Shown one piece after another: positions 13,847 through 40,720 of a stretch of 64,000 nt of DNA (its first letter is position 1; the number at the start of each line of letters is the position of its first letter). Made by a program: the position numbers and the translations under genes. The notes below the pieces were generated by a model that was not told where the DNA came from, searched no databases, and saw only the letters and a list, made by a program, of their open reading frames with translations. The stretch lies in the IMG/VR virus record IMGVR_UViG_3300005535_000017, positions 18,331-82,330 of that record; one strand, 5' to 3'. The stretch comes from a virus (taxonomy: Duplodnaviria > Heunggongvirae > Uroviricota > Caudoviricetes).

Positions 13847-14230
13847 ATGCTGCGTCGAGACGACTACATCAAGATGCTGGAGAAGCGGGCATCGATCTCC
13901 GATGGCGGGAAGATCGGCCCGACGTTCGACCACGACGTCGACAGCGCGGCCGTCGCCAACTCCGAGCACGACAAGAACCTCAACGACAACCGCAATACGC
14001 TCGGCACCCTCTTCAAGAACATGGGAGAGGCTCAGAAGGTCGAGACGCGGTTTGCCAACAAGTGGTTCCCGTCGGACAAGTTCGAGAAGGACACGTCAGC
14101 GCCCCTGCTCAAGGTGGCGATGGCAGTCCTGAACGAGTCGAGCACGTTCCAGGCATATCCGACGCATTACAAGGCTGCGGCAGTGCGCAGCTTCATCAAC
14201 GAGCTGGGCGCAATCCGCACGGGTGGCTGA
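13847..14230 (+). CDS. Hypothetical protein (EKRA near N-terminus, FINELGAI at C-terminus)
   Basis: Operon coupling. Confidence 0.7.
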   Translation: MLRRDDYIKMLEKRASISDGGKIGPTFDHDVDSAAVANSEHDKNLNDNRNTLGTLFKNMGEAQKVETRFANKWFPSDKFEKDTSAPLLKVAMAVLNESSTFQAYPTHYKAAAVRSFINELGAIRTGG

Positions 14231-15048
14231 TGCTCAACCGGCAGTTGGCGCACATCCCGGACTACCACACGCAGATCCTCGATCTCTTCCTCGATCAGCA
14301 CGTCAAGACAGCCGCGCCGAAGAAGTCGCGGGAGGAGATGAAGGAGACGCAGAAGAAGGAGCTCGAGCTCTGGCACCATTGGAACACCCATGGTCAGAAG
14401 CCGGAGCACCTCATCCCTCTGTACGAGAGCTACAAGCCACTTCTCGTTCGAGAGGCGAATAAGTACGCCAACAAGGTCGAGATTCCAACCGCCGCCATCC
14501 ATCACGAGATTGATCGGCACTTCGTCAACGCTATCAAGACCTTCAACCCCAAGCGCGGAACTCAGCTCAACACCTGGGTCCAGACGAACCTGCAGAAGTC
14601 GTCTCGCTACATCAAGACCTACCAGAACATCGGCAAGATCCCCGAGGGGCAGATCTCCCAGATTCGTCGATTTGATGCGGCGAAGGAGCATCTGATGAAC
14701 CAACTCGGGCACGAGCCGGATACCAAGACGTTGGCCGACCATCTTGGTTGGCCTCAGCGCCGCGTCGTTCAGATGATCAAGGAGCGCCGGCGAGATCTTC
14801 CAGCGTCTGGTTTCGAGAGCGACCCCGCTGAGCTCATGACGCCCAAGGAGCTCGAGGCGATCAAGCTGATGCAGTACGACCTCACGCCCGAAGAGCGGAC
14901 GGTCTACGAGTACACCTTCGGCATGAATGGCAAGCCTCGCCATCAGCCGGGCCAGATCGCCAAGACGACCGGCATTCACCCTTCCAAGGTCTCCCGCATC
15001 CGTAATCGCCTCGTCGACAAGCTGAAAGAGGCAATGGAGCTGGTCTGA
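14230..15048 (+). CDS. RNA polymerase sigma-70 family factor (regions 2, 3, 4; no region 1.1)
   Basis: Start at TGATG overlap 14230. Region 2 AIKTFNPKRGTQLNTWV, region 3 QLGHEPDTKTLADHLGW, region 4 HTH LTPEERTVYEYTFG...QIAKTTGIHPSKVSRIRNR. Confidence 0.85.
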   Translation: MLNRQLAHIPDYHTQILDLFLDQHVKTAAPKKSREEMKETQKKELELWHHWNTHGQKPEHLIPLYESYKPLLVREANKYANKVEIPTAAIHHEIDRHFVNAIKTFNPKRGTQLNTWVQTNLQKSSRYIKTYQNIGKIPEGQISQIRRFDAAKEHLMNQLGHEPDTKTLADHLGWPQRRVVQMIKERRRDLPASGFESDPAELMTPKELEAIKLMQYDLTPEERTVYEYTFGMNGKPRHQPGQIAKTTGIHPSKVSRIRNRLVDKLKEAMELV

Positions 15049-15275
15049 TGGCTGGTGCAGCGCAGAGACTCCAAGAGCTCAAAGATGCCGCCGACGACTG
15101 GTTCTCGAAAGAGAAGAACCGGTTGAATGCACAATTCGACTTCCTCGACAACATCTCCAAGAAGCGAGGAGGCAGCGTCGGTCTTCAAGACGCCAACGCT
15201 CAGGGCGCTTCGAAAATTCTGGCCAACTCGATCAACGACTATCTCGGCTCCCCGCTAGAACCTTCTAACGAGTAG
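15048..15275 (+). CDS. Hypothetical protein (75 aa)
   Basis: TGATG coupling to the sigma gene. Confidence 0.65.
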   Translation: MAGAAQRLQELKDAADDWFSKEKNRLNAQFDFLDNISKKRGGSVGLQDANAQGASKILANSINDYLGSPLEPSNE

Positions 15276-15330
15276 TTCTCTTCCCAGTCCTTCCCCATCA
15301 GGGGAGAATGCTGGACGGAGGACTCCACAA

Positions 15331-18300
15331 GTGTCGGTACCGACGAGGCTATGCCGAGCTGCTGTGTGGGCGCTTGCGCTCTTCACAGCATCTGCAGCAC
15401 TTGCACAATCCCCTTCGCCGACGCCGTCATACACCACGATTCAAAATGGTGGAACGGCTCTGCCTCAGAGGCGCATCGCCAATTTCAGCGGTGCGCTCCA
15501 GGCGACGGATAATTCCGGGTCGAACAGAACCGACGTCACTATTCCGAACGGCTCGATCGGCAATGCGCTTCTCGCCAACTCGACGATCAGCATCCAGGGA
15601 TCGTCTCCACTCGGTGGTGGCAGCCCGACCGTTCCTCTTGGTGGCTCTGTTCTTCTGACCTGCGCTACCTGCCTCACCGGCACTCCTACCGCCGGCGGCG
15701 ACCTCATGTACTCGATCAGTGGTGGCCAGGCCATGGCCCCGCTGGCAGATGTTGCGGCCGGCTCCTATCTGCGAAGCGGAGGTGTTGGAGCTCTGCCGCT
15801 GTGGTCGACGCTCAAACTTCCGAATGCGGCTACTACCGGCGATATTCTCATCGCCACTGGTACGAACTCGATTGGCAGCTTGGCGGATGTCGCGACTGGA
15901 TCAGTTCTCGTCTCTGGCGGAGTTGGAACGGCGCCGACGTGGAGCACGTCTCTTCCATCTGGCGTGCTCCCCAGCGTTGGCCCGGGTGCCGGAACGTACA
16001 CCTGGTCAACGGGTGATAGCGTCGGACTCGATGCGCAGGGACGAGTCACTGCCGTCACAAACGTCACCCGCACGCTGACAGGCGGAACAGGCATCAATGC
16101 GATCGGAGACCTCTCCGCCGACCGCACGATCTCAGTCAATCAGGGATTCAGCCCAACCTGGACCGGAACGCATACGTTTACGCTGGCCCCAGTCATTGGT
16201 GACGGTACGGGAACGACGAAATCGATCTCGTTCGACAACCTCGCCGGGCTTGGAACGCTGAGCTGGAATCCGAGCACGACGAGAACGCTTACCCTCCCAG
16301 ACGCAACCGATACCATTGTCGGCCGGGCTACCGCTGACACGCTGACGAACAAGACAATCAGCGGCGCCTCCAACACGCTGACCAACATCGGCAACGGCTC
16401 GCTGACCAACAGCTCCGTCACCATCAACACCACAGCACCGGTGGGCGGCGGAGGAACAGTCTCTCTTGGCGGCTCGCTTACGCTGACTTGCAGCACTTGC
16501 CTTGTTGGAACACCGACGGCAACTGGCGACATCCTGTACTCGACCGCGGGAGGCCAGTCACTCTCTCCGCTCGCCGACGTCGCGGTCGGATCATACCTGC
16601 GGAGCGGAGGCGTTGGTGCTGCGCCTCTTTGGTCTACACTCATTCTCCCGAACGCAGCGACTACGGGTGACCTATTCGCGGCGAGCGCCTCGAATACGAT
16701 GGGTCGAATCACCGCTGTTGCGGTGAACCAAGTCCTTCTGTCACAGGGCGTCGGGACTCTTCCTGCGTGGGGAACTGTCCCGAATGCGGCTCTGACGAAC
16801 AGCTCCATCACCATCTCTACAACTTCGCCAATCACTGGCGGTACCACAGTGTCGCTGGGCGGTACTGTCACTCTCGCCTGCGCGACTTGCATCGTTGGTA
16901 CACCGTCAGCGATCGGCGATATCCTCTACTCGACGAGCGGCGGTCAGGCCATGACCGCGCTCGCAGACGTTGCTGCTGGCTCGTACCTCCGCTCGGGAGG
17001 CTCGTCTGCCGCACCGCTCTGGTCGACGCTGACTCTTCCGAACGCCGCAACGACGGGCGATCTGTTGGCTGCCACAGCCACGAACGCAGTCGGCCGCATC
17101 ACTGCTGTCGCGGTGAATCAGGTTCTTCTGTCGCAGGGCACAGGAACACTACCTGCTTGGGGAACCGTTCCGAACGCAGCACTGACGAATAGCTCGGTCA
17201 CGATCAGCACGACCGGCCCTCTTGGAGGCGGTGGGTCCGTCTCCTTGGGCGGCACGCTTACTCTTACCTGCACAACCTGCCTCACTGGTACCCCGACAAC
17301 TACCGGCGACCTGATGTACTCGACGTCCGGCGGACAGGCAATGTCTCGCCTCGCCGACGTCACTGCTGGCTCCTATCTACGGTCTGGCGGAACGGCGGCT
17401 GCTCCAGTCTGGTCGACACTGGCCTTGCCCAATGCGGCGACAACGGGCGACATCCTTTACGCAACTGGATCGAATACAATCGGCAACCTTGCAGATGTCG
17501 CGACGAACCAAGTGCTGCTCTCTGGCGGCGTTGGTGTTGCGCCGTCTTGGGGTACAGTTCCGAATGCGGCGCTAGCCAACAGCTCCATCACCGTCACGGG
17601 AACGGCGGGGCAGATCAGCGTCAGCGGCAGCCCTGTCTCTCTCGGAGGCACGGTCACCATCGGTCTTCCGAACGTCGGCCCTGGTGCTGGCACGATCGGC
17701 GGTGGCGGCAACTTCATCAGCTCAGTCACTCTCGATGCGCAGGGCCGGGTTACGGCGGCTACATCGAGCGGAGTTAGCGGTACGATCGGTGGCTTGACCT
17801 CTGGGCGTATCCCTGTCGCCTCGAGCTCGACGACACTTGCCGACTCGAATCTGACGTGGGCGAGCAATACTCTCGATGCAACCGTCAGCGCTGTCACTCT
17901 CGGTGGCACAATGCTCACACTTCAGTGGGCAAGTGGAACGAGCAAGACGCTCAATGTTGCGACGGCTGCGGCTGACACTGCTGGAACGACTTTCACCGTT
18001 CAGGCTGGTAATGGCGGTGCCGCTTCAGCGACGGGTGGTGGCAGCGGCGCAACTCTTAACCTGAACGGCGGAACCGGCGGCGCGGGCACTGCCTCGCTGA
18101 CTGGTGGCGCGGGTGGCCAGAGTGTCATCCAGGGTGCTTCTGGCGGCGCTGGCACGGCTACGGCCCTTGGTGGCAACGGTGGCGCAGGTACTGTTCGTGG
18201 TGGGCCTGGTGGAACGAATAACGGCGCAGGTGGTGGTACTGCTGGTACTGCATCAATTCGAGGCGGCACGGGTGTCGCCCCCAGCGGCAGCAATAACACC

Positions 18301-21300
18301 GGCGCGGCGGGCGGTCTAACACAAGTTCTTGGCGCCATCCCTGCCGACGGTACCGCATCGGCTGTTGGCGGCGCTGCTGGTGCGATTCAGATCAGTGGCC
18401 AGGCAGGTGGCGCAGATAATGGTGCCGGTGCAGGTACTGGGTCCTCAATTACCATCACCGCCGGCATTGGTCGAGCGGGTCTCGCAAGCAGTGGCAACAG
18501 TGGCTCTTCGGCGGGTGCAATTACCATCTCGAGCGCTCAGAGTGGCAACGGCGGTTCTGGCGTTACGAACGGCAATGGTGGTAATGGCGCTACGAGCGCA
18601 GCGTGGGCATGGACCGCGAACAAGGGTGGCGACGCCGGAGCAGGTAACGGCACTGGCAACGGCGGCATCGGCGGTAATGGTGCAGCGTGGACCATTCAGG
18701 CTGGCGCAGGCGGGCAGGGTGGTACCGGAACGGCCCCAGGCGCCTCGGGCACGGGCGGAACCCTCACACTGCAGTCCGGCAATGGCGGTCTCGTCCAGGG
18801 TAGCAATGGTGGAGCGAGCGCTGGCAACGTCGTCATCGATACGGGCACCACTTCTGGGTCAGCAGCAGCCGGCACCATCACCATCGGTGGGACCAACAGT
18901 GGTCAGGTGAGCATCGGCCGCTCTGGCCAGAACATCATCATCCCAGGCGGCATTGTCCGCGCCACCACTCCAGGCACTGGCGTGGCCGGCACTGCTCTAC
19001 TCTTCGGCCAAGGCAACGGTGGCAACGGCTCTGGTGCGACGCCTGGTGGTGCTGGTGGCACTGCCACGCTGTTTGCGGGCCAGGGTGGTACGGCGACGAC
19101 TACGTCTGGAGGCACTGCTGGTGTTGGTGGTGCGGCGACTGTGCAGGGCGGTCAGGGCGGCACGGGCGCGGCTTCGACAAACGGCCCAGGCAACGGTGGT
19201 GGCGTCAACATCAATGGTGGCTCGGGCGGTACTTCTGGCGGCACTGGCGGCGGCAACGGCGGCTCGGTCGCAATCAATGGTGGTGCTCTATCCGGCACGG
19301 GCGTCAACGGCTCAATCACCATTGGAACGACCTCGACGGCCGGAATCACCATCGGCGGTACTACTCTTACAACGGGGCCGATCTTCAATACGGCGAGCGC
19401 AACGTCTTACGTCTGGCGCTTCAACAATACGACCAACCTGACGCTGTCCGCCTCGATCCTGCAGTTCTCGGGAACGGCCAACGCTACGTACAACATCGGG
19501 ACGGCTGCGACAGACGTCGCGGGCAAGAACCTCACGGTGAACGCGGGCAACGCCGGCACCGCTTCGACGGTGAATGGCCAGAGCGGCGGCACGATGACCG
19601 TTCGCGCTGGTGCCGGTGCGGCTGCTACCAGCACCCTCTTCGCGGGCGACGGTGGGCCGACCAGCCTCACGGGCGGTACGGGTGGTGCTGGATCGGCGGC
19701 GCAGGCGTCTGGCAACGGCGGCCTTCTCACGATTGCAGGTGGTGATGCGGGAGCTGATGGTGGAGCCGGACAGGGCAACGGTGGTGGCGTTACTATCAGC
19801 GGTGGCAACACGGTCTCCGGCTCATTCGGCAATATCAATATCTGCACCACCAACACCAACAACTGCAATATTGGCGCGACCGGAATCTCCCTCGCACTGA
19901 ATTTCAGTGACGGCACTACGCAGACAACGGCCTATACCGCAGCCGCTAATACGCTCTCTTCGGTATATGCGCACGGATCAACGACGGGAAATCAAACGAT
20001 CACGACGTCCTCCGCCAATGGTGGTGGCGTCATCATTGCCAACAACGGCACCGTCGCTGACACGCTCATTGTGAAGGATGGCTTTGGTACTGCCGTCATC
20101 GATGTGCAGACGGTTGGTAGTCCCGCCAATGTCGCAATTGGCGGCACGATGTCGATCAACAACACGCTCACTATCTCTGGAACCAGCCAGGCCATCGCCT
20201 TCGGAGGTGGCGATCTGGCGATGGACATCGGCTCCAATGCGGCTCGTGGTCGCAACTTCTTTGCCTCGCAGTTGACAGCAGGTACGGTGGCGGCTGCGAA
20301 CGACACCGCTGGCACGCCTTTGGCCCTCGGAGCTCAGCTTGGAGGCCCAGGTAGTTCAGTTGCTGGTGGAGCCGGTGGTGATATCTCCGTCGTTGCTGGC
20401 GGCGGCGGAAATGGGTTTGCGTTTGCGCCTGGTGCTGCTGGCCGAGTCTTCATAACTGCCGGTGCAGGAAATACAAGCAGCGGAAGCAGCGCTACTGTTG
20501 GCGGTGCGGTCAACATCAATGGCGGTGTCGGTGGTAATAGCGGCGGTTCTGGCCTAGCTGTTGGCGCCGGTGGCGCGGTCAATATTACTGGCGGTAATGC
20601 AGGCACGTGGACTACGGGAGCTACGGGCGGCGCCGGTGGTGCCGTTGTGCTCACGGGTGGAACTCCGGCATCAAGTGCCGCTGCGACTGGCGGCGGTATC
20701 CAACTCAACGCTGCTGCGGGTTCCGTTGGTAGCTCAAGCGCAGCCCCTGGCGCAGGTGGCTCGATTCAGCTCTTGGCCGGTGCTGGTAACACGATGATCT
20801 CCGGCTTCACTGGATCTGGCGCACAGGGTGGTGCGGTTACGATCACCGCTGGTGCCGGTAGCGATTCGAGCGGAACGGCGACGACGTCTGGCGCTGCAGG
20901 AACGGTCACTATCACGGCGGGTAAGGGCGGCGCCGGTGGTGCGTCAGATGGTGGTGCTGTGGGCGGCGCTGCGGCTCTTATCGCTGGTGCTGGCGGAGCA
21001 AATAATAACGGATCTGCTTCTGGTAACGGTGGCGCTGCATCTTTGCAGGGTGGAGCAGGTGGAGCGACCAACAACAACTCCATCTCTGGCGGAACTGGCG
21101 GTGCCGCTCAAATCATCGGCGGAAACGGTGGAAACGGCAGTGCCCAGGGCCCCCCAGGTCCTGGTGGTAACGTCACCATCACCGCTGGCAACTCAGGCTC
21201 TGTTGGTGCGTTCGGCGGCAACGTCAACGGTGGCAGTGTCACGATCGATGGCGGAACGAAGGTCAACAGTGGCACCGCCGGCACCATCACGATTGGTGGC

Positions 21301-22143
21301 ACCAACGCGAGCGCGGTCAATATCGGCCGCTCTGGTATTACGACGACGATCACTGGTGGCCTCACTCAGTTGACTGGCGCCATCAGTCTGACCGGCAATG
21401 CAGCGTCCACCATCACGACGAGCAGCGGTAACACTACGGTCGACTCTGCCGCGGCGCTGCAGCTTGGCACCTCGAACGCTACCAGCGTCTCGATCTCGAA
21501 GACGGGCGTTCGTTCGACGGTCAATGGCACCTTCAACGTTGCCTCGCAGTCGGCACCAGGATCTCCGACCAACGGCGATGTCTGGACCGACTCGACTCAG
21601 AGTGCTCTCGCTACCCAGCAGCTCGGCCTCAAGCAGATGCTGCAGGGAACCGCCTTCTCTTCAACGGCGAACGGTACGGTCAACACTGCTACCACTGCCA
21701 CGATCGTCGGCACCGGCGTTGGAACGGCCACCCTCCCAGCGAACTTCTGTGCGGCGGGCAAGACCCTGCATATTCACAACGGTGGGGTCATCACCACTAC
21801 GGCGACGCCAGGCAACTTCACCTGGCTCATCAAGCTGGGAGCCACAACAATCGCAACGACTGGCGCCCTCAGCACGGTTGGAGCGTCGCTCACCACGAAG
21901 GGCTATGACGTCGATGCATTCCTGACCTTCCGCACCTGTGGATCGAGCGGCACGGTCATGGTCGACGGCAACGTCATCTTCCCGACCTCGACTACCGCTC
22001 GTGGTTTCGCCGATTTGAACAACAACGGCGGTACGACCACCATCAATACGACAGGATCTCTTGCCGTCGACGTGCAAGCTACTCTCAGCGCTGCCAGCCA
22101 GACTGTCTCTGGAACCGTCACCACTGTTGAAGTCCTGAACTAA
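15331..22143 (+). CDS. Giant Gly/Thr-rich tail-fibre/adhesin-like protein with N-terminal Sec-type signal peptide
   Basis: 2270 aa; GGAGGA RBS 8 nt before GTG; two LDAQGRVT fibre motifs; 130-aa repeats; long GGxGG region; beta-rich C-terminal domain. Confidence 0.7.
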   Translation: MSVPTRLCRAAVWALALFTASAALAQSPSPTPSYTTIQNGGTALPQRRIANFSGALQATDNSGSNRTDVTIPNGSIGNALLANSTISIQGSSPLGGGSPTVPLGGSVLLTCATCLTGTPTAGGDLMYSISGGQAMAPLADVAAGSYLRSGGVGALPLWSTLKLPNAATTGDILIATGTNSIGSLADVATGSVLVSGGVGTAPTWSTSLPSGVLPSVGPGAGTYTWSTGDSVGLDAQGRVTAVTNVTRTLTGGTGINAIGDLSADRTISVNQGFSPTWTGTHTFTLAPVIGDGTGTTKSISFDNLAGLGTLSWNPSTTRTLTLPDATDTIVGRATADTLTNKTISGASNTLTNIGNGSLTNSSVTINTTAPVGGGGTVSLGGSLTLTCSTCLVGTPTATGDILYSTAGGQSLSPLADVAVGSYLRSGGVGAAPLWSTLILPNAATTGDLFAASASNTMGRITAVAVNQVLLSQGVGTLPAWGTVPNAALTNSSITISTTSPITGGTTVSLGGTVTLACATCIVGTPSAIGDILYSTSGGQAMTALADVAAGSYLRSGGSSAAPLWSTLTLPNAATTGDLLAATATNAVGRITAVAVNQVLLSQGTGTLPAWGTVPNAALTNSSVTISTTGPLGGGGSVSLGGTLTLTCTTCLTGTPTTTGDLMYSTSGGQAMSRLADVTAGSYLRSGGTAAAPVWSTLALPNAATTGDILYATGSNTIGNLADVATNQVLLSGGVGVAPSWGTVPNAALANSSITVTGTAGQISVSGSPVSLGGTVTIGLPNVGPGAGTIGGGGNFISSVTLDAQGRVTAATSSGVSGTIGGLTSGRIPVASSSTTLADSNLTWASNTLDATVSAVTLGGTMLTLQWASGTSKTLNVATAAADTAGTTFTVQAGNGGAASATGGGSGATLNLNGGTGGAGTASLTGGAGGQSVIQGASGGAGTATALGGNGGAGTVRGGPGGTNNGAGGGTAGTASIRGGTGVAPSGSNNTGAAGGLTQVLGAIPADGTASAVGGAAGAIQISGQAGGADNGAGAGTGSSITITAGIGRAGLASSGNSGSSAGAITISSAQSGNGGSGVTNGNGGNGATSAAWAWTANKGGDAGAGNGTGNGGIGGNGAAWTIQAGAGGQGGTGTAPGASGTGGTLTLQSGNGGLVQGSNGGASAGNVVIDTGTTSGSAAAGTITIGGTNSGQVSIGRSGQNIIIPGGIVRATTPGTGVAGTALLFGQGNGGNGSGATPGGAGGTATLFAGQGGTATTTSGGTAGVGGAATVQGGQGGTGAASTNGPGNGGGVNINGGSGGTSGGTGGGNGGSVAINGGALSGTGVNGSITIGTTSTAGITIGGTTLTTGPIFNTASATSYVWRFNNTTNLTLSASILQFSGTANATYNIGTAATDVAGKNLTVNAGNAGTASTVNGQSGGTMTVRAGAGAAATSTLFAGDGGPTSLTGGTGGAGSAAQASGNGGLLTIAGGDAGADGGAGQGNGGGVTISGGNTVSGSFGNINICTTNTNNCNIGATGISLALNFSDGTTQTTAYTAAANTLSSVYAHGSTTGNQTITTSSANGGGVIIANNGTVADTLIVKDGFGTAVIDVQTVGSPANVAIGGTMSINNTLTISGTSQAIAFGGGDLAMDIGSNAARGRNFFASQLTAGTVAAANDTAGTPLALGAQLGGPGSSVAGGAGGDISVVAGGGGNGFAFAPGAAGRVFITAGAGNTSSGSSATVGGAVNINGGVGGNSGGSGLAVGAGGAVNITGGNAGTWTTGATGGAGGAVVLTGGTPASSAAATGGGIQLNAAAGSVGSSSAAPGAGGSIQLLAGAGNTMISGFTGSGAQGGAVTITAGAGSDSSGTATTSGAAGTVTITAGKGGAGGASDGGAVGGAAALIAGAGGANNNGSASGNGGAASLQGGAGGATNNNSISGGTGGAAQIIGGNGGNGSAQGPPGPGGNVTITAGNSGSVGAFGGNVNGGSVTIDGGTKVNSGTAGTITIGGTNASAVNIGRSGITTTITGGLTQLTGAISLTGNAASTITTSSGNTTVDSAAALQLGTSNATSVSISKTGVRSTVNGTFNVASQSAPGSPTNGDVWTDSTQSALATQQLGLKQMLQGTAFSSTANGTVNTATTATIVGTGVGTATLPANFCAAGKTLHIHNGGVITTTATPGNFTWLIKLGATTIATTGALSTVGASLTTKGYDVDAFLTFRTCGSSGTVMVDGNVIFPTSTTARGFADLNNNGGTTTINTTGSLAVDVQATLSAASQTVSGTVTTVEVLN
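16390..17580 (+). repeat. Three tandem 390-nt (130-aa) repeats within the fibre gene, with a detached copy at about 15560-15950 and a partial copy after 17560
   Basis: (N/G)xxL(T/A)NSS(I/V)T recurs at 16390, 16780, 17170 and 17560; each full unit has TCxTC and the P(L/V)WSTLxLPNAATTGD segment. Confidence 0.9.
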
Positions 22144-22182
22144 GTGGTACAAAGGGGACGGGCAATCACTGAGAGGCCAACC

Positions 22183-22518
22183 ATGAAGATCCTGATCCCG
22201 ATCCTAGCTCTGCTGCTCTCGACCGTCGCGCTCGCCGAGCCCAAGCCGTCTCCTCCCTTGAACTTGCCATCCAAGATGGCGATCACGGACGCCCTCAAGC
22301 TCACGGCTGCGTGGGCGAACCGAAAGCGGATCTATGAGACGGCGAGGGCTGATGCGGCGGTCTTTGACATGGAGATCGCGCGCATTTGCAAGCAGTACAA
22401 GATCGATCCGAACCAGCTCACCGTCACGGTTGGTGTGGACCCGGATTCCGGCGAGATTCAGCGCGCTCGCCCGCCCGAGCCGCCGAAGCCCGAGAAGGCT
22501 GAGCCAAGCAAGAAGTAA
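22183..22518 (+). CDS. Small exported protein with signal peptide (possible fibre chaperone/partner)
   Basis: GAGAGG RBS; MKILIPILALLLSTVALA|EPKPSPP is a classic SPase I signal. Confidence 0.75.
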   Translation: MKILIPILALLLSTVALAEPKPSPPLNLPSKMAITDALKLTAAWANRKRIYETARADAAVFDMEIARICKQYKIDPNQLTVTVGVDPDSGEIQRARPPEPPKPEKAEPSKK

Positions 22519-22558: not shown

Positions 22559-23062
22559 ATGGCCAGCCCCCACGTTGTTGGCTTTGCATTGTTCAGCAAT
22601 GTCGACGGATCTCCGCTCACTGGTCAGTCGCCGACCTTCTTGACGTACTGCGACGAGACTGGTTCAGACATTCTTCCGAAGCCACCCATCACTGAGGTGA
22701 AAGGTGGCTTGTACGTCTTCACTCCATCATTCCACGCGAATCACCTGCTCTGCTACGTGATCGACGCTGGAGCGAGCTCGCTCAGTCGCTACTATTCGGA
22801 CATCCTTCGTCCAGAGAGCTTCGACGTCGACCAGATCGCGGCAGCGGCCACCAACGCAGCCAGTGCGGCCACCGCCGCGACGAATGCGGAAGCCGTCTCT
22901 GTCATCGTGAGGAAGATTCAGACCAACAGGTGGATCGTTGCGTCCAACCAGCTCATCATCTACGACGACGACCGGACGACGCCGCTCTACACGTTCAACC
23001 TCTTCGACCAGAACGGTATCCCGTCGATGACGAGCATCTTCCAGCGCGTTCCGACGCCGTAG
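22559..23062 (+). CDS. Putative virion structural protein
   Basis: GGAGGA RBS; short Ala-rich coil, then NRWIVASNQLIIYDDD...YTFNLFD. Confidence 0.65.
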   Translation: MASPHVVGFALFSNVDGSPLTGQSPTFLTYCDETGSDILPKPPITEVKGGLYVFTPSFHANHLLCYVIDAGASSLSRYYSDILRPESFDVDQIAAAATNAASAATAATNAEAVSVIVRKIQTNRWIVASNQLIIYDDDRTTPLYTFNLFDQNGIPSMTSIFQRVPTP

Positions 23063-28576: not shown

Positions 28577-31500
28577 ATGGCGTCCTCGGACGATCTGAAG
28601 AACTTCGTCGAGAACCTCCTCACGTCGTATGATCCGACGATCGACCTCTCTCCCGGCTCGCCGGCGGAGACCCAGATCGTGCAGCCCATCCTCGATAGGT
28701 TTGCTGCCGACCCGTTTGCGACGGATATCCCGACCTTCCTGCGTGATCGCCTCCTCCAAGAGTTCCCAGCTCTGGCGGCAGACAATGGCGGGCAGCTCGA
28801 AGATCTCATCACTAACCCGATGCAGATGTTCCTGGAGCCCTTCAAGAGGGAAATCCAGACGGTCAAGACCAACCAGTCGGTGGTGAATGCCGAGCTGATG
28901 GCTGACTCCGAGGCAGATGCCCTCGGTGCGAACTTCTTCGAGCCCCGTGAGGCGGGTGACTTCTCCGGCGGTTTGGTGCGCCTCTACTTCGCCGCCCCCG
29001 TGACGGTGAACGTCACGACCGACAAGAAGATCTACACGAACACGGGTCTCAACTTCTTCCCGGTCGAGAACTTCAAGATCACCACCGCGCAGATGCTCTT
29101 CAATCGTCAGGGCAACCTCTACTTCATGGACATCACCGTCCAGGCAGAGAATCCCGGCGACCAGTACAACGTTGCTGTCGGTGCGATCGCCAACATCGAC
29201 GACGTGCCCGGCGTGGTGAAGGTCTCGAACCTCTCCGCGTTCACGGACGGAAATCCTCGCGAAGACAACGCCACCTACCTCGGGCGCATTCCGCAGGCCC
29301 TCACCGAGCGCTCCCTCGTCACCCAGCGTGGTATCGAGGCTCGCATTCCCGACCTCTTCACGTCGGTTCGGGCGCTCAGCATCATCGGTGCCGGCGACCC
29401 GGGAATGGACCGGGACATCCTCAAGGGCACGAGTGAGGGCTTCCTCCATCTCGCAGGCAGTGCGACCTACTACGGTGAGTGGCTCATCATCTCGAACCTC
29501 ATTTATCGAGATGGTGGACCAAACGGCGATATCGTCATCCAAGCGGGAGATCTCGTTCGCTTCAAGCCGAGCTCTGGTAGCACGGTCTACGAAGCGCACA
29601 TCTCAGTGGTGGTGCCGGCCACGACGCTGGCGGCATCGACAGAGTACATCCTCATTCTGGATACGACTCTGCCGGTGACTGCCCCAAGCAGCGGCTCGTT
29701 CGCGCTTTTCAAGAGCGGCTTCATCACCATCTCGGAAGTGCCGGGAGGCATTGCCTCCAACGTTCAGGTCGCTGATGGCACCGTCCATCTTGGCGGTCAC
29801 ACGGACGTCTTCGTTCGCCCCAACAGCGATACGACGCTTCAGGACAGCCTCCCCAACATCACCGACGACAGTCCTGTCTTGGCGATCGCTGGCAACGCGG
29901 CTTCGAACTTCCGCATCAACGGCTCGACTGGTAGCCCAACCAACATCGCGTTCAGCGGTGGAACGTCTCCCATCGACTTCGTCCAGGCTGGCGTCCAAGT
30001 AGGAGACATCGTCATCATCGAGACGTCTGCCTTGGCCGGCTCCTACCGAGTCCTGGCGATCAACGATCCCGACGAGTTCAGCCTTCGTCTGGATACGCTC
30101 TTCACGCAGACCCAGACACAGCTTCGCGCCCGAATCGTTCGGAACATCCACATCGACCTGGTCGAGCCGAAGATTCCCAAGCTCCCGTTCGATACCGGCT
30201 CTGTCTCGGACTTGAGCACGACCGTCGGTTCGAAGCTCTTCCGACTGACGACCATCAACATCCAGTCGTTCGGGGCAGTGGTGGGCGATACCATCCGTGT
30301 GTTGGATGGACCAGATGCGGGGGACTTCGCCATCACCGGGTTCGACACGGTGCTGGGCGGGCAGGGCCCCATCGTCGACCGCGCAGCCGGCGCCTCGACA
30401 GCGAACCTCCGCTACGAGGTGTTCACGCCGTCGCCGGGCCTCACATTGCCCTTGGTGCGCATCAAGGGGATCGAGATCCTCGACTCGACCAACCAAGGCA
30501 CGGGCATCACCGTCCCGTACGGTGACGCGGTCGATATTCGACCGACCTGCGACTTCCAGGGTGCTGCGAACGAGGTGCGGGTCCTCGACAGCCAGATCTT
30601 CATCTTCCCGGATGCGACCGGTTTGTGGCCGCTCTCGAACACTGGTGTCACGCCAGGGGCGAATCACGACGCTCGCTACTCTCAGGAGATCCAGAGCTTC
30701 GACGGTTTCTACCGACCCATCACGACCCAGAACGGTGGCAACCCCATCACGCAGAACGAGGTGAACATCCCTCCGTTCCTCTACGATGGGAATCGCAACA
30801 AGCTGCTGGCGTTCACAACGAGGAAGGACCCGAACTTCACCGCTTTCCCGGGTGGAGACAACCGAACGAGTGATGTTGCAGAGGCGAAGATCGGAGACTC
30901 GCTGACCATCCTCGATGGGCCGAATCAGGGCTCGTACCTCATCACCGATCTCCGCGTCCTCGACATGTGGTCGGTGACAGACGCCGGCCACCAGAAGATC
31001 GCGGTCGTGCAGGTCGACCCTCCGTTCCCCGTCGATCCGGTCAAGACGATGATGAATCTCATCGCCGCAGTGACGCCGGGAAGTGCCATCACCGGTACCG
31101 ATCTTTTGAAGACGATTCAGTACTCAACGGACTTCTTCAATGGAAGCGGGTTCTGGAGTCTGCTGCAGGGTCGTCTGCAGGCGGTGATGACGGCGTTGTC
31201 GATCACCATTTCGAATGGCGATCTCAACGCACTGACGAAGAGCTTGTCCTTTACGGGCTACTCCGTCGGACCGTCCGCCAGAGGCACACTGCGTGTCTAC
31301 TTCCAGGAACCTGTCTCTGCTGAGTTCCGGTCTGGCATCAATCCGACCCGCTTCGTCGATCTTCTGCAGCCGAGTCGTGTCTTCCGGCTGGACCCAGTTC
31401 TGCCGGACGCTCAAGTGTTGCCGGAGTCGGAGACTCAGACACCTCCGTCTCAGTGGAGCCGGAACACCTCTGAGCGCTGGTTTGTGAACGGAGGCTCGCC

Positions 31501-33286
31501 GGACGCCAACGCCTTCATCACGACCGGCTCGGCTTACATCAAGAGAGGCGTCGAAGACGGAGACGAGTACGAGTACTACCCGGCCATCAATGACTTCCCG
31601 GCTCGAGACCAGATGCAATCGAGCTGGGTCTGCGTGACGCAGGCTGGCTCAAATGTCATCACGGTCCTCTTGCCAGCCGTTCCTGGACACCTGACGTTCA
31701 TTCAACCGGGGCAGCTCTTCTTCATCGATAGCGGTCCCGACATCGGCGCCTACAACATCACCGAGGTGATCACCGACGAGCTCGACGGCAGCGGTGCCAA
31801 TCCCGATCGGCCGGTGGTGCAGTTCCGCATCGACAAGACGATGACGCACTCGACGGCGGGCGTGCCGGGCAGCCTCGATCTATCGCCAACGGCGCGACCG
31901 GCAATGCCGAGCGACTTCAGCACTGGAACGACCCGAGTCATCTCTTCGCAAGCGCGCCTCTACCACCCGTCGTTTGCATCGGCCGCATCACCGAACGTCG
32001 ACTGGGTGTCCATCTACGCGGTGGCTAATACGACTGTCGAAGAGTTCGGGGACGACGTGGCCTACCTCGGAACCTTCTTGGTCATCGATCAGCAGTCGGA
32101 TATCAACGGCGACTACGTGGTCTTGGACCGCTCACCTGCGTTTCCCGACGCGTCCACGTCGCCAGCGACAGCCTATCCGAGCACGGCTCAGGTCTTCTGG
32201 ATTCTCCACAGTGCGCCCGATGCTACGCCTACGTCGACCTCTGGCGGAGGGACGGCCCTCTCCAATCAGTACGTTCGCTGCCGTCTCTACGATTCGGTTC
32301 CGCAGACTCGGTTTGTGAACATTCCTTGGTCGTCGGGAAACCCGCTCATCGATCACATCCCGGACCTATTGCCGTCGGACCCGAATTACACGGCCAGCTC
32401 TGAGCAGATCAAGCTGAAAGACAAGACTGGCGCGGATAGTCCCATCAGCAGCTCGGGTAACTTCCTAGGCCTCACAAACCAGTCGTTCTATGAGCATTGG
32501 TCTCCTTATCGAGTGCTGCGCCAAGGCATCCACAAGATCTCCTCGACGGCGATGGCTCTGCAGCGAGAGGGGGCTCTCTACTTCGTCGATCTACCGGCGG
32601 TTGGGTACGGGCCGCAGTCTGAGATGAACATCGCCGAGGACACGGCGCTCGGCATCAAGGAGAACGCCAAGATCGATGGTTACCAGCTCGTGGTGGACAA
32701 CAGCATCTTCACATTCTCCGACCAAGAGCAGGTCTCGATCGTCATCCCGCCGTCAATCTTGCCGGTCGGCTCGACGCCTGGAATCGTCAATGAAATCGAC
32801 CTGGCAGGGCAGACGATTCAGATCACCTACGACAATGCGCCGCTTGCAGAGGAACTGCAGAGGTTCTTCAACTCGCCTCTGGATCGCGTCGTGGTGGCGA
32901 ACTACCTCATCCGCCATTTCTTGCCAGCGTACGTCTTCCTCGATGTGGCCTACGTGGGCGGTAGCGACACGAGCGTTGTGGCGAAGGATCTCATCAACTA
33001 CATCAATACGGTTCCGCCGTCGGTCAATCAGTTAGTGGCAAGCCAGGTCGAGAACATCGCTGTTCGTCGTGGGGCGACGAAGGTGACTCTACCTCTCACG
33101 CTCATCGCGCTCGTTCACGACATCGATAGGAAGATCCGTGGTCTTCGGTCCAAGAATGCGATTGGCGCTGGAGACGTCCCTATCTTCAACGGGACATACG
33201 CTCAGACGTACTTCATCGCCGGGCCAGATACGTCGAACACGCAGCCGAGGCCGGACGGTGAGCAGGTGTTTTTGACAAGGACCTAA
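28577..33286 (+). CDS. Baseplate J/gp6-like protein with large insertions
   Basis: DALGANFFEPR...GLVRLYF...VQAENPGDQYNV...FTDGNPREDNATYLGRI...RSLVTQRGI; C-terminal SVVAKDLINYIN. Confidence 0.75.
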   Translation: MASSDDLKNFVENLLTSYDPTIDLSPGSPAETQIVQPILDRFAADPFATDIPTFLRDRLLQEFPALAADNGGQLEDLITNPMQMFLEPFKREIQTVKTNQSVVNAELMADSEADALGANFFEPREAGDFSGGLVRLYFAAPVTVNVTTDKKIYTNTGLNFFPVENFKITTAQMLFNRQGNLYFMDITVQAENPGDQYNVAVGAIANIDDVPGVVKVSNLSAFTDGNPREDNATYLGRIPQALTERSLVTQRGIEARIPDLFTSVRALSIIGAGDPGMDRDILKGTSEGFLHLAGSATYYGEWLIISNLIYRDGGPNGDIVIQAGDLVRFKPSSGSTVYEAHISVVVPATTLAASTEYILILDTTLPVTAPSSGSFALFKSGFITISEVPGGIASNVQVADGTVHLGGHTDVFVRPNSDTTLQDSLPNITDDSPVLAIAGNAASNFRINGSTGSPTNIAFSGGTSPIDFVQAGVQVGDIVIIETSALAGSYRVLAINDPDEFSLRLDTLFTQTQTQLRARIVRNIHIDLVEPKIPKLPFDTGSVSDLSTTVGSKLFRLTTINIQSFGAVVGDTIRVLDGPDAGDFAITGFDTVLGGQGPIVDRAAGASTANLRYEVFTPSPGLTLPLVRIKGIEILDSTNQGTGITVPYGDAVDIRPTCDFQGAANEVRVLDSQIFIFPDATGLWPLSNTGVTPGANHDARYSQEIQSFDGFYRPITTQNGGNPITQNEVNIPPFLYDGNRNKLLAFTTRKDPNFTAFPGGDNRTSDVAEAKIGDSLTILDGPNQGSYLITDLRVLDMWSVTDAGHQKIAVVQVDPPFPVDPVKTMMNLIAAVTPGSAITGTDLLKTIQYSTDFFNGSGFWSLLQGRLQAVMTALSITISNGDLNALTKSLSFTGYSVGPSARGTLRVYFQEPVSAEFRSGINPTRFVDLLQPSRVFRLDPVLPDAQVLPESETQTPPSQWSRNTSERWFVNGGSPDANAFITTGSAYIKRGVEDGDEYEYYPAINDFPARDQMQSSWVCVTQAGSNVITVLLPAVPGHLTFIQPGQLFFIDSGPDIGAYNITEVITDELDGSGANPDRPVVQFRIDKTMTHSTAGVPGSLDLSPTARPAMPSDFSTGTTRVISSQARLYHPSFASAASPNVDWVSIYAVANTTVEEFGDDVAYLGTFLVIDQQSDINGDYVVLDRSPAFPDASTSPATAYPSTAQVFWILHSAPDATPTSTSGGGTALSNQYVRCRLYDSVPQTRFVNIPWSSGNPLIDHIPDLLPSDPNYTASSEQIKLKDKTGADSPISSSGNFLGLTNQSFYEHWSPYRVLRQGIHKISSTAMALQREGALYFVDLPAVGYGPQSEMNIAEDTALGIKENAKIDGYQLVVDNSIFTFSDQEQVSIVIPPSILPVGSTPGIVNEIDLAGQTIQITYDNAPLAEELQRFFNSPLDRVVVANYLIRHFLPAYVFLDVAYVGGSDTSVVAKDLINYINTVPPSVNQLVASQVENIAVRRGATKVTLPLTLIALVHDIDRKIRGLRSKNAIGAGDVPIFNGTYAQTYFIAGPDTSNTQPRPDGEQVFLTRT

Positions 33287-35940: not shown

Positions 35941-35941
35941 C

Positions 35942-40009: not shown

Positions 40010-40712
40010 AGTGAGGCACGGCGGTCACGACCTGGTGAGGGTGACCGACCAACTCAACTTTGGATTCTTCGACACCTCGAGAGGTACTCGAGAGCCGGCG
40101 AAGACCGTTATCTGCGCCCCAGAAAAGGAGCTCGTCCAGGTCGAGGGCTTCTTTTCCGCCGTGTGCCGAGAGCGTGGAAAGCTCGTCTATGGTACGAGGC
40201 GGGAGGGCAAGAACATCTGGACTCTGACCGGCCGTGAGTACCTGGCTCAGCTCATGAGCTACTCGGCCTACGGCACCTCAGCACACGCCGGTGGAAGCTC
40301 GAACCCGGATACGCCGGCACGCGACGATCGCATTCGCTACTTTGGCTTCGGGACGGGAACGCAGCCGGAAGTGAGCTCAGTCTCGGCGCTCGTCAACCCG
40401 ATCGCATTCGATGGCGGCGGTAACTTCCTGGCGTCGATCTCCCTGCCGACCTACCCGCTAGCACCAACCCGGACCACCGTCCAATACAGCCGTACCTATA
40501 CGGAGTTGGAGCTCTCGTTTGGCGGGACTGTCACGCTCACCGAGGCGGGCCTCTTCACAGACGGATCCCCGACGGCGAACTACGCACCGAGGACGCGAGA
40601 TGTTACTCTCGCAAATGCCTCTGCCCAAGCGCCGGACGCGTACAAGGCATTCGAGCCGCTGAGGAAGACGCAGAACTTCGTTCTCGATGTGAGCTGGCAG
40701 ATCCGCTTCTAG
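39999..40712 (+). CDS. Tail-collar/fibre-attachment-like protein
   Basis: TLTGREYLAQL...YFGFGTG...LTEAGLF...KTQNFVLDVSWQIRF. Confidence 0.6.
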   Translation: MSDRVRHGGHDLVRVTDQLNFGFFDTSRGTREPAKTVICAPEKELVQVEGFFSAVCRERGKLVYGTRREGKNIWTLTGREYLAQLMSYSAYGTSAHAGGSSNPDTPARDDRIRYFGFGTGTQPEVSSVSALVNPIAFDGGGNFLASISLPTYPLAPTRTTVQYSRTYTELELSFGGTVTLTEAGLFTDGSPTANYAPRTRDVTLANASAQAPDAYKAFEPLRKTQNFVLDVSWQIRF

Positions 40713-40720
40713 GAGAAGTA

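Follow-up and report, generated by a model that had tools for sequence, protein, structure and literature searches.

Tailed-phage morphogenesis is taught as purely cytoplasmic, and tail fibres normally assemble in the cytoplasm. The classical pairs of fibre and chaperone (lambda Stf/Tfa, T4 gp37/gp38 and Mu S/U) are cytoplasmic, have no signal peptides (SPs) and include chaperones that co-vary with the fibre tip. To our knowledge, and in the literature searched, no tailed-phage virion protein is Sec-exported; the exported tailed-phage proteins that we can name (T5 Llp, Cor, lambda Lom and Bor, T4 Imm and Sp, and the spanins) are all non-virion. These proteins and the SAR endolysins are, as far as we know, Sec-routed to the envelope of the infected cell, which is where the proteins described here would also be directed, but they are small, not fibre-like and not homologous to receptor-binding fibres. 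Braun's lipoprotein (Lpp) is a small exported helical protein of the coiled-coil type that forms a parallel trimer and is cross-linked to peptidoglycan through its terminal Lys.

The mosaic adhesive trimer (MAT) fibres of Bdellovibrio bacteriovorus (Caulton et al. 2024, PMC10769870) carry a Sec SP on a long phage-tail-fibre-like protein, in which the SP is followed by a conserved region and by variable modular C-terminal tips. PblA and PblB of the Streptococcus mitis phage SM1 and of pneumococcal prophages (PMC4508584) are very large tail-fibre-like proteins that end on the bacterial surface; they are set free when the phage permeabilises the cell, and they bind cells, and the pneumococcal form of PblB is predicted to have an SP. 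Porphyromonas gingivalis phages have been reported to carry SP-bearing genes of unknown function (Matrishin et al. 2023, PMC10367356), and the Q-rule of the Bacteroidetes (PMC10653852) describes SPase I signals whose cleavage leaves Gln at the N-terminus.

The locus analysed here lies in a 64,000-nucleotide stretch (the window) of an uncultured phage with a 210-kb genome, for which a search of 50,697 phage records returned no cultured relative. It encodes a giant protein of 2270 aa (15331-22143, + strand, GTG start) and, directly downstream, a partner of 111 aa (Table 1). A preliminary description had read a basic n-region, a hydrophobic h-region, an A-L-A site and a Pro-rich linker on both proteins, each behind a good ribosome-binding site, and all of these were present in the sequence as described. 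The h-region of the giant spans 16 residues with a mean KD of 1.90 (1.6 in its counterpart in the syntenic contig L010) and leads into A-L-A/Q-S-P-S-P-T-P-S, with small residues at -3 and -1 and no Pro at +1. The h-region of the partner, also of 16 residues, has a mean KD of 2.67 and is followed by A-L-A/E-P-K-P-S-P-P. A lipobox with Cys at +1 was absent from both proteins. The downstream reading frame of the preliminary description was a real SP-bearing gene but its coordinates were corrected to 22183-22518, as the true start is ATG 22183 and not GTG 22144 of the mechanical ORF; homologues begin at the same Met.

Table 1. Features of the exported-fibre locus and its surroundings (positions are those of the window).
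Feature	Position	Strand	Details
Sigma-70-like gene directly upstream	14230..15048	+	ORF may start at 14062; Pfam Sigma70_r3 E 6.7e-07, phrog_351 E 8.9e-14
75-aa ORF between sigma gene and giant	15048..15275	+	From ORF list
Ribosome-binding site GGAGGA, giant gene	15317..15322	+	8 nt before GTG; read from sequence
Giant signal peptide, residues 1-25	15331..15405	+	n-region R6/R9, 16-residue h-region, A-L-A, predicted cleavage before Gln26
Mature giant, residues 26-2270 plus stop	15406..22143	+	Pro-rich start QSPSPTPS, shaft repeats, Gly-rich region, C-terminal tip
Four CxxC repeat units, residues 99-128, 375-404, 505-534, 635-664	15625..17322	+	Motif LGGxLTLTCxxCLTGTP...GDLMYS
Gly-rich low-charge region, residues ~880-1990 (~1100 aa)	17968..21300	+	20-38% Gly, broken by Thr/Asn-rich segments (composition table)
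C-terminal tip domain, residues ~2060-2270	21508..22140	+	One Cys pair, 2140/2203
Ribosome-binding site GAGAGG, partner gene	22171..22176	+	6 nt spacer to ATG 22183; read from sequence
Partner signal peptide, residues 1-18	22183..22236	+	K2, A-L-A, predicted cleavage before Glu19
Mature partner, residues 19-111 plus stop (93 residues)	22237..22518	+	Pro-rich linker, long helix 34-71, beta-hairpin 83-94, Pro/Lys tail ending KK
167-aa protein without SP, third cassette gene	22559..23062	+	Conserved in window, L010 and L014; also after SP-less fibre in L008
1569-aa protein with baseplate-wedge (Baseplate_J-like) N-terminal domain	28577..33286	+	Pfam Baseplate_J E 1e-06; phrog_6 baseplate wedge subunit E 7.5e-17

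SPs were scored with one home-made heuristic, rather than a trained predictor, which was applied alike to every set. In the 210-kb genome, 16 of the 247 genes (6%) were SP-positive at their first start, compared to 12 in a reversed-sequence control; the giant and partner, which adjoin, were both among the top scorers of the 247. The survey of homologues that had been suggested with the preliminary description revealed conserved SPs in 8/8 fibres linked to a partner homologue, each with its own diverged SP, and under the strict rule in 72/83 members of the partner family, whereas only 9/79 and 6/39 of the other fibre homologues (11-15%) were positive; the homologues are interrelated, which inflates these figures. 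The SPs of the linked fibres were 19-27 residues long, with AxA at -3/-1 in seven of the eight and Gln at +1 in seven. SPs were also present on nine of the nearest fibre homologues of the giant. A hydrophobic N-terminal segment was found in 77/82 partner-family members (87-94% across the two rules), with AxA in 47 of the 72 and mostly Asp or Glu at +1. Between the giants of the window and L010, 12/25 SP residues and 40/50 of the following residues were identical, and the n/h/c layout and AxA/Q were kept. Given the diverged SPs on every partner-linked fibre and the SP-rich partner family, against a low background, the predicted SP pair is not due to chance.

There is little to commend the reading that the SPs are non-functional lookalikes, with the true start elsewhere or with a hydrophobic N-terminus on an ordinary cytoplasmic fibre, although the start codon is GTG and fibres of tailed phages are normally assembled in the cytoplasm. 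GTG 15331 is the earliest start codon past the in-frame upstream stop, has a strong ribosome-binding site, and occurs in an identical GGAGGA-plus-GTG arrangement in L010. The sole nearby alternative, GTG at codon 12, lacks a ribosome-binding site and is not conserved in L010, and further starts are found only at codons 126 and later, so a true start downstream of the h-region was not borne out. The layout is kept across very diverged homologues of both proteins, and the SP covaries with a Cys-pair unit and with the exported partner. It is also very improbable, if slightly less so, that the h-segment of the fibre is exported and left uncleaved, and that it fastens the fibre to the periplasmic side of the inner membrane, either as a signal anchor or as a releasable tether of the SAR type, until depolarisation at lysis. 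The h-region of the giant is long, Ala/Ser/Thr-rich and of modest hydrophobicity, and SAR domains of the P1 Lyz type are similarly long and modestly hydrophobic. SAR endolysins are mentioned in PMC3556154. Against this, the AxA and +1 Gln of the linked fibres, followed by a Pro-rich linker, make up a conserved SPase I site that would be superfluous for an anchor, and the SP lengths are typical of cleaved SPs.

Both proteins, whose genes form a conserved cassette of two, would thus in all likelihood be exported, with folding under oxidising conditions beyond the cytoplasm. With cleavable Sec SPs they would very probably cross the inner membrane of a diderm host, to which three lipobox lipoproteins encoded in the genome point, and be cut by signal peptidase I after A-L-A, giving a fibre that starts at Gln26 (QSPSP...) and a partner that starts at Glu19 (EPKPS...). 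The Gln that SPase I would expose on the linked fibres resembles the P. gingivalis-phage signals; the genes named in PMC10367356 are capsid, spanin and unknown genes, however, and not tail fibres. As Asp or Glu predominates at +1 in the partner family, the host need not belong to the Bacteroidota.

The mature giant contains 12 Cys, every one of them in local pairs (four CxxC units, one Cx6C and one pair in the tip), and only one Glu. The repeat unit carried CxxC in 17/25 units of SP-bearing fibres and in 0/49 units of SP-less homologues; Cys density was 6.0 and 1.85 per 1000 aa, and CxxC was present in 10/20 and 6/103 proteins, respectively, statistics which are again inflated by the interrelation of the homologues. 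The 'YLRSGG...WSTL.LPNAATTGD' unit was also present in SP-less fibres. That export is real was strongly supported on three comparative grounds: SPs kept in diverged homologues of both proteins, the strict linkage of the SP-bearing fibre to an exported partner, and the limitation of the Cys-pair unit to SP-bearing fibres. We infer that the fibre probably folds in the oxidising periplasm, where the local Cys pairs would become disulfides, and that the CxxC repeat unit would be an adaptation peculiar to the exported subfamily. CxxC pairs could alternatively bind metal. The CxxC unit, the contrast between SP-bearing and SP-less fibres and the partner family are new here.

The giant had no match among Pfam, PHROG, NCBIfam or PDB sequences. 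Its tail-fibre-like character, as proposed in the preliminary description, is supported by comparative sequence evidence: some of its 79 homologues have Mtd_N, Peptidase_S74 or C1q domains, SP-bearing fibres have exchanged tips with SP-less ones, and relatives have the gene in a tail-fibre slot, which follows Baseplate_J and Mu gp48 in L006 and baseplate genes in L014. The window tip was also C-terminal on 39 other proteins (495-1728 aa), mostly SP-less and fibre-like and one with Mtd_N; the two closest (61% identity) bear SPs, and the atlas look-alikes of the tip were Uroviricota proteins. The tip of the L010 giant is unrelated to that of the window and is common to L001, L003, L005, L012 and the SP-less fibre of L008. 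No domain for attachment to the virion was recognised at the mature N-terminus of the giant, which counts against attachment to the particle; the segment that the window has in common with L010 and L014 recurs in L008 and L007 as an internal repeat.

The resemblance to MATs is one of architecture, and it extends to Peptidase_S74, which ends some relatives. MATs are chromosomally encoded in a predatory bacterium and displayed on its cells, whereas the genes described here are phage genes in tail-fibre slots and the window fibre is accompanied by a dedicated small exported partner. PblA and PblB, which resemble the giant by description, come from monoderm hosts and have neither a small exported partner nor the Cys-pair unit, and the S. 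mitis PblB lacks an SP and is also needed for tail morphogenesis.

An SP-bearing fibre (645-2270 aa) was encoded directly upstream of the partner homologue in the window, L001, L003, L005, L010, L012 and L014, such that 7/7 of the large proteins in this position bear an SP. In L007 the SP-bearing fibre was three genes away, and one contig encoded a partner homologue without a giant gene upstream. In the syntenic L008 the slot was occupied by a fibre that has no SP; a homologue of the 167-aa gene came next, and no clear partner was seen. The cassette occurred on unrelated backbones, often beside lysis genes or an integrase. The location of the pair 'within the virion operon', as first described, was shown only in part: the nearest recognisable virion gene is the baseplate-wedge gene, 6 kb downstream on the same strand, the gene directly upstream is sigma-like, and most neighbours belong to no recognisable family.

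The partner belongs to a previously undescribed family of 81 clusters and had no Pfam, NCBIfam or PDB fold match; no chaperone family was matched. Its AF2 model (45 sequences; mean pLDDT 87.9, core ~97) consists of a long helix and a hairpin. Modelled with itself, the partner scored 0.45 (runs of 0.59, 0.45 and 0.01; best of three controls 0.06), with the runs agreeing in at least 67% of contacts and a partner pLDDT of at least 63. The self-association mark was reached by 20/30 proteins solved as one-chain pairs and by 1/23 solved as single chains, counts which apply only roughly to the partner, as its model was built with a custom alignment and with three copies. The modelled contacts were antiparallel (residue 68 with 40 and 65 with 43). 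The C-terminal residue was Lys in 69/83 family members, compared to ~11% of the residues elsewhere in the tail. The mature partner could, with about even chances, be a helical accessory protein of the periplasm that self-associates, probably as an antiparallel dimer, and acts on the fibre generically, being specific to neither its tip nor its N-terminus; the conserved C-terminal Lys on the Pro/Lys tail suggests a tether to an envelope component.

As with Stf/Tfa-type pairs, the window has a fibre with a swappable tip, of the kind that follows baseplate genes, and a small accessory gene directly downstream, a chaperone-like trait found in seven contexts; here both proteins carry an SP and the partner co-varies with neither end of the fibre (Spearman rho 0.22 for the C-terminus and 0.17 for the N-terminus, neither significant). 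The label of 'downstream partner' was thus justified for the conserved pairing and not in the sense of a tip-specific chaperone (Tfa or gp38 type), which was rejected for lack of covariation with the tip and of similarity to a known chaperone family. The partner was likewise not assigned as a two-component o-spanin, as it has no lipobox, no adjoining lysis genes, and one weak O_Spanin_T7 match in its family (1/45 members, E 0.0046). As an Lpp-like tether it has the C-terminal Lys, and six family members have a lipobox, but the window partner and 77/83 members have none, so that most are not lipoproteins; the modelled pair is antiparallel instead of a parallel trimeric coiled coil, and the beta-hairpin and Pro/Lys tail are extra.

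The small protein is unlikely to be an envelope or lysis factor (for example spanin-like, or a periplasmic peptidoglycan-binding protein) that is not the partner of the fibre and adjoins it solely because the structural module closes with tail-fibre genes just ahead of the lysis genes. In L003, L005 and L012 membrane proteins and then an endolysin follow the small gene, and L006 has a different, non-homologous small SP protein in its position. The lipobox in six members, the single O_Spanin_T7 match, the C-terminal Lys, which recalls Lpp, and the lack of covariation with either fibre end would also fit such a factor. In the window, L010 and L014, however, lysis genes do not adjoin and the small gene still directly follows an SP-bearing fibre; SPs occur on every large upstream protein compared to 11-15% of fibre homologues, and most members have neither the lipid anchor nor the transmembrane segment that spanins need.

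The evidence does not choose between the two fates raised in the preliminary description, attachment to the particle at lysis and display as an adhesin or receptor-blocking coat. We tentatively favour a real host-recognition fibre that replaces the cytoplasmic fibre of the same slot and would meet the cytoplasm-built particle only at lysis, through the breach that the holin makes in the inner membrane; this is the weakest part of the proposal. That fibre and particle would occupy separate compartments until lysis counts against it. So does the presence of further large proteins without an SP (33634-44407) that are fibre or baseplate candidates, as the giant could be an extra fibre, and the mobility of the cassette and its place beside lysis genes or integrase, as for accessory 'moron' genes.

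Less probable, though still a serious contender, is a fibre that is exported yet non-virion, which infected cells or lysogens would put into their envelope or release, acting there as a surface adhesin, a receptor mask or a cell-aggregating factor. As a mask it would serve in superinfection exclusion or shield progeny from adsorbing to debris, with the partner helping or anchoring it. The exported tailed-phage proteins known to us, all non-virion, fit this reading, as do the mobile cassette at module ends beside lysis genes, integrase or glycosyltransferases and the SP-less fibre or tailspike candidates also found in every phage examined. PblB (PMC4508584) is a precedent for a prophage tail-fibre-like surface adhesin with, in pneumococci, a predicted SP, and the Bdellovibrio adhesins (PMC10769870) are SP-bearing phage-fibre-like trimers. 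On the other side, the gene lies in a co-directional block with the baseplate-wedge gene, no integrase was seen in the window, and the cost of 2270 aa is very large. Known exclusion genes are early genes. A periplasmic fibre would need an outer-membrane secretion route to act on outer receptors, and none is encoded nearby. A decoy would need an SP-less paralogue with the same tip; none was found in the genome, which weakens the simple decoy version of receptor blocking. The SP-less fibre in the same syntenic slot of L008 is an ordinary one.

Taken in all four steps (export, oxidative folding, the action of the partner and attachment at lysis), a conserved phage cassette for an exported fibre is the best explanation overall, although it may well not hold in full. 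A two-compartment assembly is a more speculative form of it: the fibre, exported by Sec and stabilised by disulfides, would mature in the periplasm alongside a dedicated dimeric partner, itself perhaps fixed to the cell wall via the conserved C-terminal Lys, and would be loaded onto particles built in the cytoplasm just after the holin opens the inner membrane. An export signal, a Cys-pair unit and an exported partner family together would mean either extracytoplasmic maturation of virion fibres or widespread undescribed envelope adhesins made from tail-fibre parts. In either case the annotation of metagenomic phage fibre genes would change, as about 11-15% of the fibre family is SP-bearing, and expression of such receptor-binding proteins may need periplasmic, oxidising conditions. 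The small-protein family brings with it a cell-wall-tether hypothesis, and the SP-bearing and SP-less fibres in one syntenic slot represent a natural experiment.

L010 encodes a 266-aa counterpart of the sigma gene in the same place and, matched by position, a 78-aa ORF in the slot of the 75-aa ORF of the window. The 167-aa protein aligned with that of L008 (BLASTP E 2e-21), and tblastn matches were found in L010, L008 and L014 only. Its AF2 model revealed an Ig-like beta-sandwich N-domain (pLDDT 75-84); among fold matches the best, at E 3.7e-04, was a tailed-phage protein that is itself uncharacterised, and tail/BppU_N proteins were only weakly similar.

The giant, a tail-fibre-like protein, was found to start at GTG 15331, which was the first start codon past the in-frame upstream stop and had GGAGGA 8 nucleotides ahead of it. 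A start at codon 12 was rejected as it lacked a ribosome binding site (RBS) and was absent from L010, a related 119.7 kb phage contig. Residues 1-25 of the giant contained Arg6 and Arg9, an uncharged h-region of 16 residues and A-L-A, after which the protein continued with QSPSPTPS. The small ORF encoding the partner had been listed from GTG 22144; however, its homologues began at a Met corresponding to ATG 22183, which had GAGAGG 6 nucleotides upstream, and the signal peptide (SP) started there. From this Met the partner encoded Lys2, an h-region of 16 residues and A-L-A, followed by EPKPSPP. Apart from the listed start of the partner, the N-termini agreed with the preliminary description, which had reported a basic n-region, h-region, A-L-A, Pro-rich continuation and RBS for both proteins. 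A home-made heuristic (the SP rule), which requires a charged n-region, a hydrophobic core and small residues at -3 and -1 with no Pro, was positive at the first start for 16 of the 247 called genes of the genome, with 12 positives in the reversed-sequence control. The giant and the partner, which are adjacent genes, were among the top scorers. Both proteins are very probably exported through Sec and cleaved at A-L-A; that the hydrophobic segment of the fibre is instead an uncleaved anchor was regarded as a minor alternative.

A search with residues 1-420 of the giant returned 79 proteins, some carrying Mtd_N, Peptidase_S74 or C1q, which places the giant in the broad tail-fibre world. Nine of the nearest homologues had their own SP, which differed in sequence but kept the layout, usually with AxA followed by Q; the SP was absent in most distant matches. 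L010 was syntenic with the window over the sigma gene, a small ORF, a 2246 aa giant, a 101 aa partner and a 168 aa protein, and its giant had a GTG start and an RBS identical to that in the window. The SPs of the two giants shared 12/25 residues and the following 50 residues shared 40/50. Signal peptides evolve by rapid sequence change with their layout retained, and the identity and kept layout of the L010 SP match this pattern. The giant had no match in Pfam, PHROGs or NCBIfam and nothing usable by phmmer against PDB sequences, and its residues 26-700 had no tblastn match in 50,697 phage records.

In the window and other phage contigs, a partner homologue was immediately preceded by an SP-bearing fibre-like protein (645-2270 aa) in 7 contexts, representing at least 5 phage backbones. 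In L007 the partner was three genes from an SP-bearing fibre, and one contig appeared to encode a partner homologue without a giant upstream. All 8 fibres associated with a partner homologue were positive by the SP rule, compared with 9/79 and 6/39 of the fibre homologues at large; seven of the 8 had AxA and seven had Gln at +1. At the same predicted cleavage position the partner family had mostly Asp or Glu. Judged by sequence and comparison, the fibre and partner with their predicted SPs are a conserved cassette. The tail-fibre slot of the Mu-like phage L006 encoded two consecutive SP proteins and then another small SP protein; the exported companions of SP fibres in L006 and L011 were unrelated to the partner family. 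The genes between the partner and the endolysin in L003, L005 and L012 form a putative lysis module, and that the partner itself belongs to lysis was considered a minor alternative.

Positions of features in the window, in the source genome and in other phage contigs (L numbers)
Feature	Location	Remarks
Sigma-70-like gene	window 14062-15048	region 3 match; strand of the giant, directly upstream of it
Giant	window 15331-22143 (+)	2270 aa
Partner	window 22183-22518 (+)	111 aa
167 aa protein	window 22559-23062	SP-less; follows partner; Ig-like beta-sandwich N-domain
252 aa ORF	window 39954-40712	phrog_5417 match (function unknown), E 1.2e-07
Predicted lipoproteins (lipobox + Cys)	genome C1 5981-6499, 141058-141918, 152334-152813	beyond window
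Three small paralogous membrane proteins	genome C1 143115-143267, 153333-153563, 154484-154762	beyond window
Cassette	window, L010	large phages with sigma gene
Cassette	L001	integrase and glycosyltransferases
Cassette	L003, L005	86-95 kb phages with Prim-Pol and ribonucleotide reductase
Cassette	L012	followed by membrane proteins and amidase
Cassette	L014	temperate myovirus, immediately past baseplate genes
Sigma-70-like gene	L010 1100-1900	same position as in window
477 aa Cys-rich SP protein	L006 8568-10001	ahead of fibre
SP proteins of 114-117 aa	L006 14174-14518; L011 127-480	right behind fibres
Multi-pass membrane protein (285-314 aa, conserved) and small helical protein (79-121 aa)	L003 17236-18322; L005 16882-18007; L012 9519-10830	partner-to-endolysin interval; preceded in L003 and L005 by an i-spanin-like protein of 132-139 aa (single TM segment, coiled coil)
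LAGLIDADG endonuclease domain insertion	L005 2413-5178; L003 2932-4662	576 aa protein becomes 921 aa in L005; near-identical phages
Intein/HNH insertion in ribonucleotide reductase gene	L005 25610-26039	distinguishes L005 from L003
455 aa protein	L014 9361-10728	begins with duplicated copy of the Ig-like N-domain of the 167 aa protein

The small proteins following the giants of L001, L003 and L005 were clear partner homologues, each with its own SP. A 7-member profile searched against 1.84 billion representative proteins yielded 81 partner clusters, nearly all of 85-135 aa. A hydrophobic N-terminal segment was present in 77/82 family members, the exceptions being truncated or borderline; the strict SP rule was passed by 72/83 partners and six had a lipobox instead. 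The mature chain had a Pro-rich start, a PPSKM..DAA.LDAA motif, a TGEI.RA motif and a Pro/Lys tail, in which the C-terminal residue was Lys in 69/83 partners, compared with approximately 11% Lys elsewhere in the tail. The AlphaFold2 model (45 sequences), which had a core pLDDT of ~97, comprised one long helix at residues 34-71 and a beta-hairpin at 83-94. The partner had no match in Pfam, PHROGs or NCBIfam, nothing usable by phmmer against PDB sequences and no tblastn match in 50,697 phage records; its model had no Foldseek match in the PDB at E <= 0.001, and its look-alikes in the Atlas were unnamed tailed-phage proteins. Modelling three copies of the mature partner gave a self-association score of 0.45 (runs 0.59, 0.45 and 0.01), compared with 0.06 for the best of 3 controls. 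This mark was reached by 20/30 proteins solved as one-chain pairs and by 1/23 solved as single chains, counts that apply only approximately to this model of three copies with its own alignment. Contact agreement between runs was at least 67%, partner pLDDT was at least 63, and the modelled contacts (68-40, 65-43 and 72-32) formed an antiparallel helix pair. The model supports self-association of the partner; an Lpp-like parallel trimer was rejected because these contacts were antiparallel. A role as tip-specific chaperone was also rejected, as partner similarity followed neither the N- nor the C-terminal end of the fibre.

All 12 Cys of the mature giant were locally paired, as four CxxC, one Cx6C and one tip pair. 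Across 123 fibre homologues, the median Cys density was 6.0 per 1000 aa in SP-bearing and 1.85 in SP-less proteins, a threefold difference, and CxxC was found in 10/20 SP-bearing compared to 6/103 SP-less homologues. The repeat unit ahead of a GDxxYS landmark read LGGxLTLTCxxCLTGTP, and CxxC was present in 17/25 units of SP-bearing fibres and in 0/49 SP-less units matched by this landmark; p-values for these comparisons are inflated as the sequences are related, but the pattern is nonetheless all-or-none. The non-shared units resembled GTLPIANGGTNLTTY. Folding in the periplasm, an oxidising compartment, is expected to go with paired cysteines, and the restriction of the CxxC unit to SP-bearing fibres is independent support for export; that there is no export at all was considered a minor alternative. 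The pairs probably form disulfides, and a metal site at CxxC is a possible alternative. Both proteins carry conserved predicted SPase-I-type signals and the cassette has its own specific Cys-pair unit.

The giant homologue of L008 (2001 aa) had no SP, and a stop codon was located immediately before its start. It was followed by SP-less ORFs of 166 aa and 63 aa and then by a homologue of the 167 aa protein of the window (E 2e-21). This gene order, compared with that of the window, indicates that an ordinary and an exported fibre occupy one position. The 166 aa protein was not established as an SP-less partner (hhalign probability 17%, E 0.0014; BLASTP E 0.18), and any kinship with the partner would be very distant. 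On comparison of the sequences, the predicted SP, the CxxC unit and the putatively exported partner are gained or lost together. Only the shaft repeats were common to the giants, whereas the N- and C-terminal domains were mosaic. L010, L001, L003, L005, L012 and the SP-less L008 (56% identity to L012) had fibres with a common tip of ~270 aa, and the window tip was found on 39 other proteins, mostly SP-less, of which the two closest were SP-bearing. Receptor-binding fibres evolve by such tip exchange and mosaicism, and the mosaic ends and the tips common to SP and SP-less fibres point to this mode of evolution.

The four ORFs after the partner had nothing in Pfam, PHROGs or NCBIfam. The first, the 167 aa protein, had weak fold similarity to tail/BppU_N-type proteins, and its sole match in a viral-contig search was a near-identical 19 kb fragment (L009). 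Docking of the fibre N-domain to this protein was rejected: L008 and L007 carry the N-domain as an internal repeat unit, which makes their co-occurrence uninformative.

The source contig was a single sequence of 210,330 bp with ~60% G+C, of which the window covers bases 18331-82330. The minus strand of the window encoded a family A DNA polymerase and DnaB-like helicase, primase, RecA-like, UDG-family and dNMP-kinase-like proteins. The plus strand contained a long run of large ORFs with very few PHROG matches, and a recognisable family was found in just two: the sigma-70-like protein and a 1569 aa protein with a baseplate-wedge/Baseplate_J domain. The best match of the DNA polymerase among 50,697 phage records had ~31% identity. 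The source is a large tailed phage, uncultured and very divergent. The three genome-encoded proteins with a lipobox and Cys fit a diderm host. Sigma-like genes were also present in L003 and L005, a few kb off the cassette.

The preliminary description had proposed that the fibre folds in the periplasm and is attached at lysis, or that it is a surface adhesin or receptor-blocking coat. Its naming of the protein as tail-fibre-like was supported by the homology to proteins with Mtd_N, Peptidase_S74 or C1q, the tip exchange and the slot occupied in relatives. We tentatively favour, as one possible reading, a real host-recognition fibre that would meet the particle once the holin opens the inner membrane, with the self-associating partner in what may be a generic periplasmic accessory role. 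The slot, in which it takes the place of an ordinary fibre, the co-directional block shared with the baseplate-wedge gene, the tips exchanged with ordinary fibres and the lack of an SP-less twin speak for this reading. As the genome had no paralogue of any giant segment elsewhere, a decoy or receptor mask acting beside a twin fibre was rejected. The main rival, that the fibre is no virion part but an adhesin or receptor mask in the envelope, is a somewhat less likely reading; it would suit a mobile cassette placed at module ends and agrees with the exported tailed-phage proteins known so far, none of which is known to be part of the virion.

Three published cases came nearest: the MAT fibres of Bdellovibrio are phage-fibre-like trimers with an SP that are made by the bacterium (PMC10769870), PblB is a prophage fibre-like adhesin with a predicted SP in its pneumococcal form (PMC4508584), and some Porphyromonas phage genes whose function is unknown encode Q-rule signal peptides (PMC10367356; PMC10653852 for the Q-rule); none of these is a fibre-plus-partner cassette. 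The cassette was not described in the papers that a literature search for exported tail fibres returned. Novel findings are the family of partners, the CxxC unit specific to SP fibres, and the contrast between SP and SP-less fibres within one slot.

Of the 2270 residues of the giant just one was Glu, compared with 56 D, 14 K and 33 R, and a stretch of ~1100 aa had 20-38% Gly. Its shaft repeats were also carried by P0006 (2754 aa, E 4e-138) and P0027 (1520 aa, E 1e-35) of Fadolivirus algeromassiliense, a giant virus of amoebae. Some of the SP-less fibre homologues with CxxC (P0024, P0032 and P0065) began with a MerR/HTH-like N-terminal domain, an unusual fusion in a fibre protein; one such homologue originated from soil (metagenome bin PAT1).
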